Made by a program: the position numbers and the translations under genes
Shown: positions 17,373 through 17,752 of the stretch, in pieces
How the letters are laid out: every line of letters starts with the position of its first letter
Numbering within the stretch: the stretch's first letter is position 1
Source of the DNA: Escherichia coli
GTDB taxonomy: Bacteria; Pseudomonadota; Gammaproteobacteria; Enterobacterales; Enterobacteriaceae
Assembly: GCF_045037415.1 (NCBI RefSeq)
Contig: NZ_CP173438.1
Strand: one strand, 5' to 3'
DNA: 64,000 bases
Notes under the pieces: generated by a model
Seen by the model: only the letters and a program-made list of their open reading frames with translations
Database searches by the model: none
What the model was told of the DNA's origin: nothing

Positions 17373-17752
17373 AATGAATCCTTTTTCGATTTATGAGAAT
17401 AAATACTCATTTAAGGGTGAAAACATTTTGCCTGCAAATGATTATCAGGAAATATAACATTATCGAAGTATTCAAATTAACAACTATTAAATAACATTAA
17501 ACATTTTTAACGTAAACATTAAGAATATTCATCTTGTTATCTGTCTGTATTTTAACCAGAATTAAATCAGTATTAGATGCCGTATGAATATCTCGAAATG
17601 TTGCGGTGTATCACATACAAATCATCACCGCAGGACCATAGTATTTACATAAGGTTTGTCCCCCGGAGGTAGTCATCGCAGCAATCGAGTAAATTAGCTT
17701 CACCACGGTATATTGTTTCCGTAGAATACCCATAATTATAAGAGAGGTTGTT

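Follow-up and report, generated by a model that had tools for sequence, protein, structure and literature searches.

In this 64-kb stretch of Escherichia coli DNA (hereafter the window), the 380 bp separating yffB from ypfM probably constitute the divergent promoter and regulatory region of two core enterobacterial genes, with no gene of their own. We propose that the spacer is made up of two unequal halves. The ypfM-proximal half (17591–17752) is tightly conserved and would carry two promoter modules for the ypfM mRNA. One, P1, is a near-consensus sigma-70 promoter that binds RNA polymerase holoenzyme alone in vitro and would give a 19-nt leader from 17734. The other is a distal module in which a CRP/FNR-type site would take the place of a -35 element, followed by a CATAGT -10 and a start at A17649, and which, if real, would yield a leader of about 104 nt. 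The yffB-proximal half (17373–17590) would carry the yffB promoter, for which TGTTATATT, initiating near 17445, is the likeliest candidate, and as the AT-rich half it would be the tract that is bound by H-NS in vitro. Most of this is familiar ground. The spacer is an ordinary one, and its main features have already been published, namely the ypfM promoter and start, the in vitro binding of RNA polymerase and H-NS, and the ypfM/STnc250 mRNA; the distal ypfM module with its class II geometry is the only new item here. Coordinates of the features discussed are collected in Table 1.

Table 1. Features in and around the yffB/ypfM spacer, in window coordinates
Feature	Positions	Strand	Details	Basis
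yffB CDS	17016..17372	-	ArsC-family reductase; left boundary of the spacer	
yffB/ypfM divergent intergenic spacer	17373..17752	.	380 bp, GC 0.318	
yffB Shine-Dalgarno	17379..17383	-	AAGGA, in the conserved AAAAGGATTCA block	sequence and alignment
Fur-box-like sequence	17437..17447	-	TGATAATCATT; overlaps the predicted yffB start	sequence and alignment; motif-level inference
Predicted yffB promoter	17451..17459	-	extended -10 TGTTATATT, hexamer 17456->17451	conservation
AT-richest core	17460..17590	.	GC 0.23, poorly conserved; holds the yffB promoter predicted by Shimada et al.	
CRP/FNR-type 22-bp site	17597..17618	+	TTGC 17601-04, N6, TCACA 17611-15; centre 17607.5	conservation
Published distal ypfM 5' end	17624..17624	+	129-nt leader	Kim 2012 Table S1, 2589017(-), 2 reads; weak
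Predicted distal ypfM promoter	17637..17649	+	-10 CATAGT 17637-42, predicted start A17649, leader 104 nt	
Conserved near-palindrome	17673..17696	.	AATCRCAGYGATYGGTTAAAT, just upstream of the P1 -35	
Proximal ypfM promoter P1	17699..17734	+	-35 TTCACC 17699-704, -10 TAGAAT 17722-27, start A17734	
ypfM Shine-Dalgarno and ORF	17742..17812	+	GAGAGG 17742-47; 19-codon ORF 17753-17812	peptide conserved in 72/80 loci
ypfM mRNA 3' part	17792..17911	+	terminator 17871-17906; E. coli counterpart of Salmonella STnc250; outside the spacer	

Composition and conservation of the spacer

Positions 17373–17752 are exactly the 380-bp interval between yffB on the minus strand and ypfM on the plus strand. Downstream of yffB lie dapE and then ypfN, while on the other side the ypfM ATG is at 17753 (MIERELGNWKDFIEVMLRK) and acrD, on the minus strand, ends at 17911. 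A search of 5426 complete E. coli genomes recovers the spacer, at an identity of at least 95%, from 5425, and RefSeq places no annotation under it. In K-12 it corresponds to 2590867–2591246 of NC_000913.3 (a K-12 position being 2608619 minus the window position), and the copy studied here differs from that of K-12 at three positions.

The low GC content is pronounced, at 0.318 in the spacer versus 0.534 in the window as a whole. Among all segments of 380 bp in the 64 kb, no more than 0.06% reach so low a value, and the lowest are all located here. When the full gap that holds the spacer (17373–17910) is compared with the other intervals of 80 bp or more that separate long ORFs in the 64-kb window, its GC of 0.349 is the second-lowest of 23 (median 0.434). 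Another very AT-rich gap between long ORFs is found at 32505–32724, with a GC of 0.305, below that of the gap at 17373–17910. The AT-richness is lopsided: GC is 0.28 at 17373–17459, 0.23 at 17460–17590 and 0.41 at 17591–17752, so that the yffB side (17373–17590) has a GC of about 0.25 and the ypfM-proximal segment is normal for a spacer.

The spacer contains mechanical ORFs of 13–40 aa, none of which proves to be conserved in a comparison with 72 related spacers, and with a single exception they are interrupted by stops in either E. albertii or a divergent lineage of Escherichia. The exception, which begins at 17584 and is 22 aa long, was considered as a gene and rejected, as it is without a Shine-Dalgarno sequence and is gone in Enterobacter as well as in further genera. 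Tandem repeats are absent from the spacer, and the dispersed repeats amount to two-copy matches of 9–17 nt, as expected for AT-rich DNA. The original prediction, which had described a 380-bp AT-rich region between yffB and ypfM with no ORF and no recognisable repeat, was thus exact in its coordinates, correct as to base composition and repeats, and right in substance as to ORFs, those that exist being short and not kept in relatives.

That prediction had also suggested a conservation scan, which we carried out using YffB and one genome per species, obtaining 80 loci. In 72 of them ypfM is likewise found upstream of yffB and arranged as in the window, and nearly all of these also have acrD; the gene order yffB-ypfM-acrD is kept in about 70 enterobacterial species. 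Across the loci the spacer ranges from 202 to 1543 bp, with a length of 378–391 bp in Escherichia, Citrobacter, Enterobacter, Leclercia and Lelliottia. In the alignment the last 160 bp or so before ypfM are strongly conserved and the AT-rich centre is not; on the yffB side a short element and the ribosome-binding site are conserved, and it is to these two places that the scan assigns constraint. Within E. coli, the spacer is present at an identity to the window of at least 99% in 3446 genomes, versus 1294 for yffB, so that at this level it is no more variable than yffB itself. One locus labelled E. coli (L002), with a 378-bp spacer, encodes a YffB only 91% identical to that of the window, and probably belongs to a cryptic Escherichia clade.

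P1 and a possible distal promoter upstream of ypfM

The proximal promoter P1 matches the sigma-70 consensus at 9 of 12 positions, with 17-bp spacing and a start 7 nt past the -10. It is the one canonical promoter returned by a scan of 17200–18000, versus 2.5 expected from shuffles, from which it follows that the promoters for yffB and for any distal ypfM transcript are not consensus-like. The same TTCACC-17-TAGAAT was named as the ypfM promoter by Shimada et al. (2014) from RpoD-holoenzyme genomic SELEX, and Table S1 of Kim 2012 lists a ypfM start at K-12 position 2588907, equivalent to window 17734 and giving a 19-nt leader, with only 4 reads. All 56 sequences retain P1, including those as distant as Yersinia and Dickeya; 42 of the 56 have TAGAAT as the -10, and the -10 is 24–27 nt from the ATG. 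The near-palindrome AATCRCAGYGATYGGTTAAAT is centred about 54 bp upstream of the P1 start, and in some genera is a perfect inverted repeat, AATCAC-AG-GTGATT.

Further upstream of ypfM, 56 distinct sequences representing many enterobacterial genera share a conserved block (17591–17649 in the window). Its consensus reads TATTTCAAAATATTGC-N6-TCACAT.AAAT, followed by about 12 variable bases, CATAGT or CATATT, five bases, and then C-A. Of the 73 sequences with a ypfM match (the window and 72 loci), 59 have the TTGC-N6-TCACA element 135–151 nt ahead of the ATG of ypfM, and this position is steady although those spacers run from about 290 to more than 1000 bp. As the distance to ypfM is fixed and that to yffB is variable, the block belongs to ypfM and not to yffB.

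Several properties of the block resemble those of a promoter. The hexamer is CATAGT or CATATT in all 56 unique sequences, so that A at position 2 and T at position 6 are present in 100%, and these are the bases most needed by a -10 element. Among the bases following the hexamer the sixth is C in 46 of 58 sequences and the seventh is A in 49 of 58; C-A is a typical -1/+1 pair. The gap between TCACA and the hexamer is 21 nt in 49 of the 56 unique sequences and 20 nt in the other 7, and the leader predicted from such a start would be 102–118 nt across the sequences (104 nt in the window). No usable -35 is present for this predicted promoter, and the centre of the CRP/FNR-type site is situated 41.5 bp upstream of A17649. 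A possible explanation, which we put forward tentatively, is that ypfM has a second, distal promoter that depends on an activator (CRP or FNR, bound at -41.5) and that is conserved in most Enterobacteriaceae.

Such an arrangement has precedents in the class II CRP- and FNR-dependent promoters, for example galP1, melR and FF(-41.5). The distal ypfM module resembles these in having its site at -41.5 from the predicted start, a spacing of the TGTGA-N6-TCACA type, a perfect promoter-proximal TCACAT, a moderate -10 and no usable -35. The resemblance to the recognition sequences themselves is less good. The site matches the CRP core at 7 of 10 positions and the FNR core at 7 of 10 in the window and 8 of 10 in K-12. 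Its right half, TCACAT, matches perfectly and does not vary. The left half, TTGC, is equally invariant, as a simply degenerate half-site would not be expected to be, and may be read by another protein; it fits both CRP and FNR poorly, its T being FNR-like and its C fitting neither. In a scan with the CRP consensus the site does not come within 2 mismatches, and sites with two mismatches occur in the window at chance frequency. The distal module differs from the class II promoters not only in this half-site but also in that its start is a predicted one and that the motif match, taken by itself, is at chance level, so that it is conservation and geometry alone that make the case for a distal promoter. 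One of the three differences from K-12 falls within this site, position 17605 being G in the window and T in K-12 (TTGCG versus TTGCT).

Published RNA data bear on the distal module in two ways. The weak distal 5' end of Kim 2012 at 17624 does not fit the CATAGT -10, for which the predicted start is 17649. A TAAAAT/TACAAA hexamer immediately after TCACA was considered as an alternative distal -10, but this is less likely: whereas CATAKT retains both the A at position 2 and the T at position 6 in 100% of sequences, this hexamer does so in just 48%. It also lies only 2 nt before the 17624 end and so fits that end poorly. Promoters for sigma-54, sigma-E, sigma-32 and sigma-28, compared by eye with their consensus sequences, do not fit either. 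On the other hand, Sittka 2008 reports a band of about 220 nt for ypfM/STnc250 in Salmonella. By adding the E. coli leader and ORF lengths to a 94-nt Salmonella 3' segment we estimate a Salmonella ypfM mRNA of 236 nt from the distal start versus 152 nt from P1, and as the observed band is nearer the former it provides one indirect support for the distal start. In E. coli itself, the distal mRNA would measure about 258 nt and the P1 mRNA about 173 nt.

It is rather unlikely that the block at 17591–17649 is not a promoter at all but an upstream operator or activator site for some other protein, which would either regulate P1 at a distance or act as a roadblock. TTGC and the 14 nt upstream of it (17587–17600) are as invariant as TCACA, which suggests a specific asymmetric protein contact and not a CRP dimer; a start at 17649 is absent from the Kim 2012 table, and a second conserved near-palindrome lies between the distal block and P1, all of which would suit an operator. 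However, the block and P1 are between 54 and 69 nt apart depending on the species, and this variation of 15 nt is a poor fit to a site whose action depends on the face of the helix, while the retention in CATAKT of the two key -10 bases, with C-A at the right distance, and a Salmonella transcript of about 220 nt that is too long for P1, are more readily accommodated by a promoter.

If the distal promoter is real, it would give rise to the Hfq-bound form of the 19-codon ypfM mRNA of about 220 nt, with its long leader, and a highly conserved small protein (or a dual-function RNA) would thereby be controlled by carbon or oxygen. As at gal, overlapping promoters might also be switched by CRP. We regard the module as a modest lead, which could reveal the regulator of YpfM, a protein of 19 residues conserved from Escherichia to Yersinia.

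The ypfM transcript and the question of a small RNA

The original prediction had raised the possibility of an unannotated small RNA in the spacer. We consider it very improbable that the spacer encodes either a small RNA of its own or an RNA structure acting in cis, for example a leader hairpin or riboswitch. The observations that might be taken to suggest one are the Hfq binding of the ypfM transcript in Salmonella, the weak 5' end at 17624, and strong inverted repeats flanking CATAKT, with stems of 7–8 bp, in Leclercia (L026, L030, L044), C. amalonaticus (L033) and Kluyvera (L078). These repeats are lineage-specific, lie approximately 15–60 nt after TCACA, and are absent from most other genera. 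A conserved hairpin with CAUAGU in the loop, convincing to the eye in several genera, was rejected as a general feature: the duplex energies of the flanks, when compared with shuffles, have a mean z of -0.2 over 59 sequences, with p < 0.05 in only 5 of the 59. The two leaders fold with no extra stability relative to shuffles (z = +0.55 and +0.33), and neither a stable nor a covarying structure came to light in the spacer. Rfam gives no match in the spacer at E <= 10 except for one viral motif at chance level, and the terminator scan finds no terminator-like site within 17373–17752, all four that it reports being at 17833–17995. The cDNAs that represent the Hfq-bound RNA map to the 3' part of ypfM, outside the spacer.

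The spacer thus shows neither its own terminator nor a recognised RNA family or structure, nor, in the table of Kim 2012, a transcript other than a UTR, by which an intergenic small RNA might be identified. That table, which covers one growth condition at low depth, gives the spacer just two starts, both on the ypfM strand and both assigned to ypfM. The prediction had named the detection of no transcript other than the 5' UTRs of the flanking genes as the outcome that would count against it, and in this one shallow dataset the small-RNA reading fails on that point. The useful outcome is a negative one, in that the idea of a hidden small RNA can be dropped.

The nearest known 'sRNA' to the spacer is STnc250, which Sittka 2008 identified in Salmonella as the Hfq-bound ypfM mRNA, with cDNAs from its 3' part. 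The corresponding Rfam family, RF01409, matches the window at 17792–17911 over model positions 1–94, with 35 bits and E = 9.9e-05; it falls short of the gathering score, 42, on account of an insertion of about 24 nt in the E. coli 3' UTR. Judged from gene order and the shared ORF, the homology of the ypfM locus with STnc250 is nevertheless clear: both lie between acrD and yffB, and they have the 19-codon ORF and the terminator architecture in common. STnc250 is an mRNA and not a non-coding RNA, and its match is outside the spacer.

ypfM and acrD are convergent, with overlapping 3' ends (17833–17913). A hairpin at 17836–17860, inside the ypfM 3' UTR, scores as a terminator on the minus strand, that is for acrD, and the ypfM terminator ends 5 nt before the acrD stop codon. 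Elsewhere in the 64 kb, the only Rfam family above threshold is naRNA4 (RF02564, nucleoid-associated ncRNA 4/CssrE), at 40333–40414 on the plus strand, with 75.5 bits, above its gathering score.

The yffB side and in vitro binding of H-NS

The predicted yffB promoter would initiate near 17445 and give a leader of approximately 73 nt. The 9-mer TGTTATATT occurs without mismatch in 27 loci (Escherichia, Citrobacter, Enterobacter, Leclercia, Lelliottia and others), in which the leaders would be 59–103 nt. With TG-T-TATATT and no recognisable -35 it resembles the extended -10 (TGn) promoters; it differs from these in that its start is predicted, the Kim 2012 Table S1 (one growth condition, low depth) listing none for yffB. 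Shimada et al. (2014) had predicted a different yffB promoter as a best match, TTCATA-16-TTTAAT on the minus strand (17589->17562), which is not conserved outside Escherichia and Citrobacter. Conservation thus favours TGTTATATT at 17459->17451 as most likely the yffB promoter, and this position, better supported than that of the SELEX paper, is a second modest lead.

Fröhlich et al. (2016) built a Salmonella yffB::gfp fusion from -97 and showed that it is repressed by the small RNA SdsR. By laboratory convention, the -97 end presumably marks a mapped Salmonella yffB start, and repression of the fusion by SdsR would mean that yffB has a regulated leader with a length of this order. The Fur-box-like TGATAATCATT (17447->17437) is kept only in Escherichia. 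In Salmonella, yffB is up 2.6-fold in a fur mutant, and a MarA ChIP peak has been reported in the yffB/ypfM spacer.

In vitro genomic SELEX has located an RpoD holoenzyme site and an H-NS site here (Shimada et al. 2014, PLoS One 9:e90447), both being given for the spacer as a whole. The AT content, well above the averages for the window and for spacers, is that of a promoter spacer bound by H-NS, although the H-NS high-affinity motif is not enriched, with 2 occurrences in the spacer versus 1.2 expected from composition-matched shuffles. The suggestion in the original prediction that nucleoid proteins bind here is therefore upheld by in vitro H-NS SELEX, and finds no counterpart in the motif count. 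From binding in vitro to the AT-rich half, it is likely that H-NS damps transcription in both directions in vivo. The spacer is itself listed by Shimada et al. (2014) among the H-NS-associated 'type-A spacers' with constitutive sigma-70 promoters, which it resembles in being AT-rich, in lying between divergent genes, and in its ypfM promoter TTCACC-17-TAGAAT; it departs from the entry given there in that conservation favours another yffB element, and the binding reported there is in vitro only.

The least probable of the explanations we considered is that the AT-rich tract is a degraded mobile element, or what is left of horizontally acquired DNA, silenced by H-NS. In its favour are the GC of 0.23–0.28 at 17373–17590, the lowest in the 64 kb, and the H-NS SELEX site of the spacer. 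Against it, 5425 of 5426 E. coli genomes carry the tract at an identity of at least 95%; Escherichia, Citrobacter, Enterobacter, Leclercia and Lelliottia share the gene order and a spacer of about 380–390 bp; and the tract is without repeats, inverted terminal repeats or ORF remnants, with neither copies of it at other genomic sites nor flanking target-site duplications seen.

The original prediction also held that the spacer must carry the promoters both for ypfM and for yffB-dapE-ypfN. For ypfM this is so, in the form of P1 and its published start at 17734, while for yffB there is a predicted extended -10 only. As regards the genes beyond yffB the wording was too strong. Table S1 of Kim 2012 lists a dapE start inside yffB, at window 17282 on the minus strand (8 reads), and a ypfN start inside dapE, at window 16070 on the minus strand (5 reads). 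These internal starts indicate that the spacer is not the sole source of dapE and ypfN transcription, and that yffB-dapE-ypfN is an operon with internal promoters.
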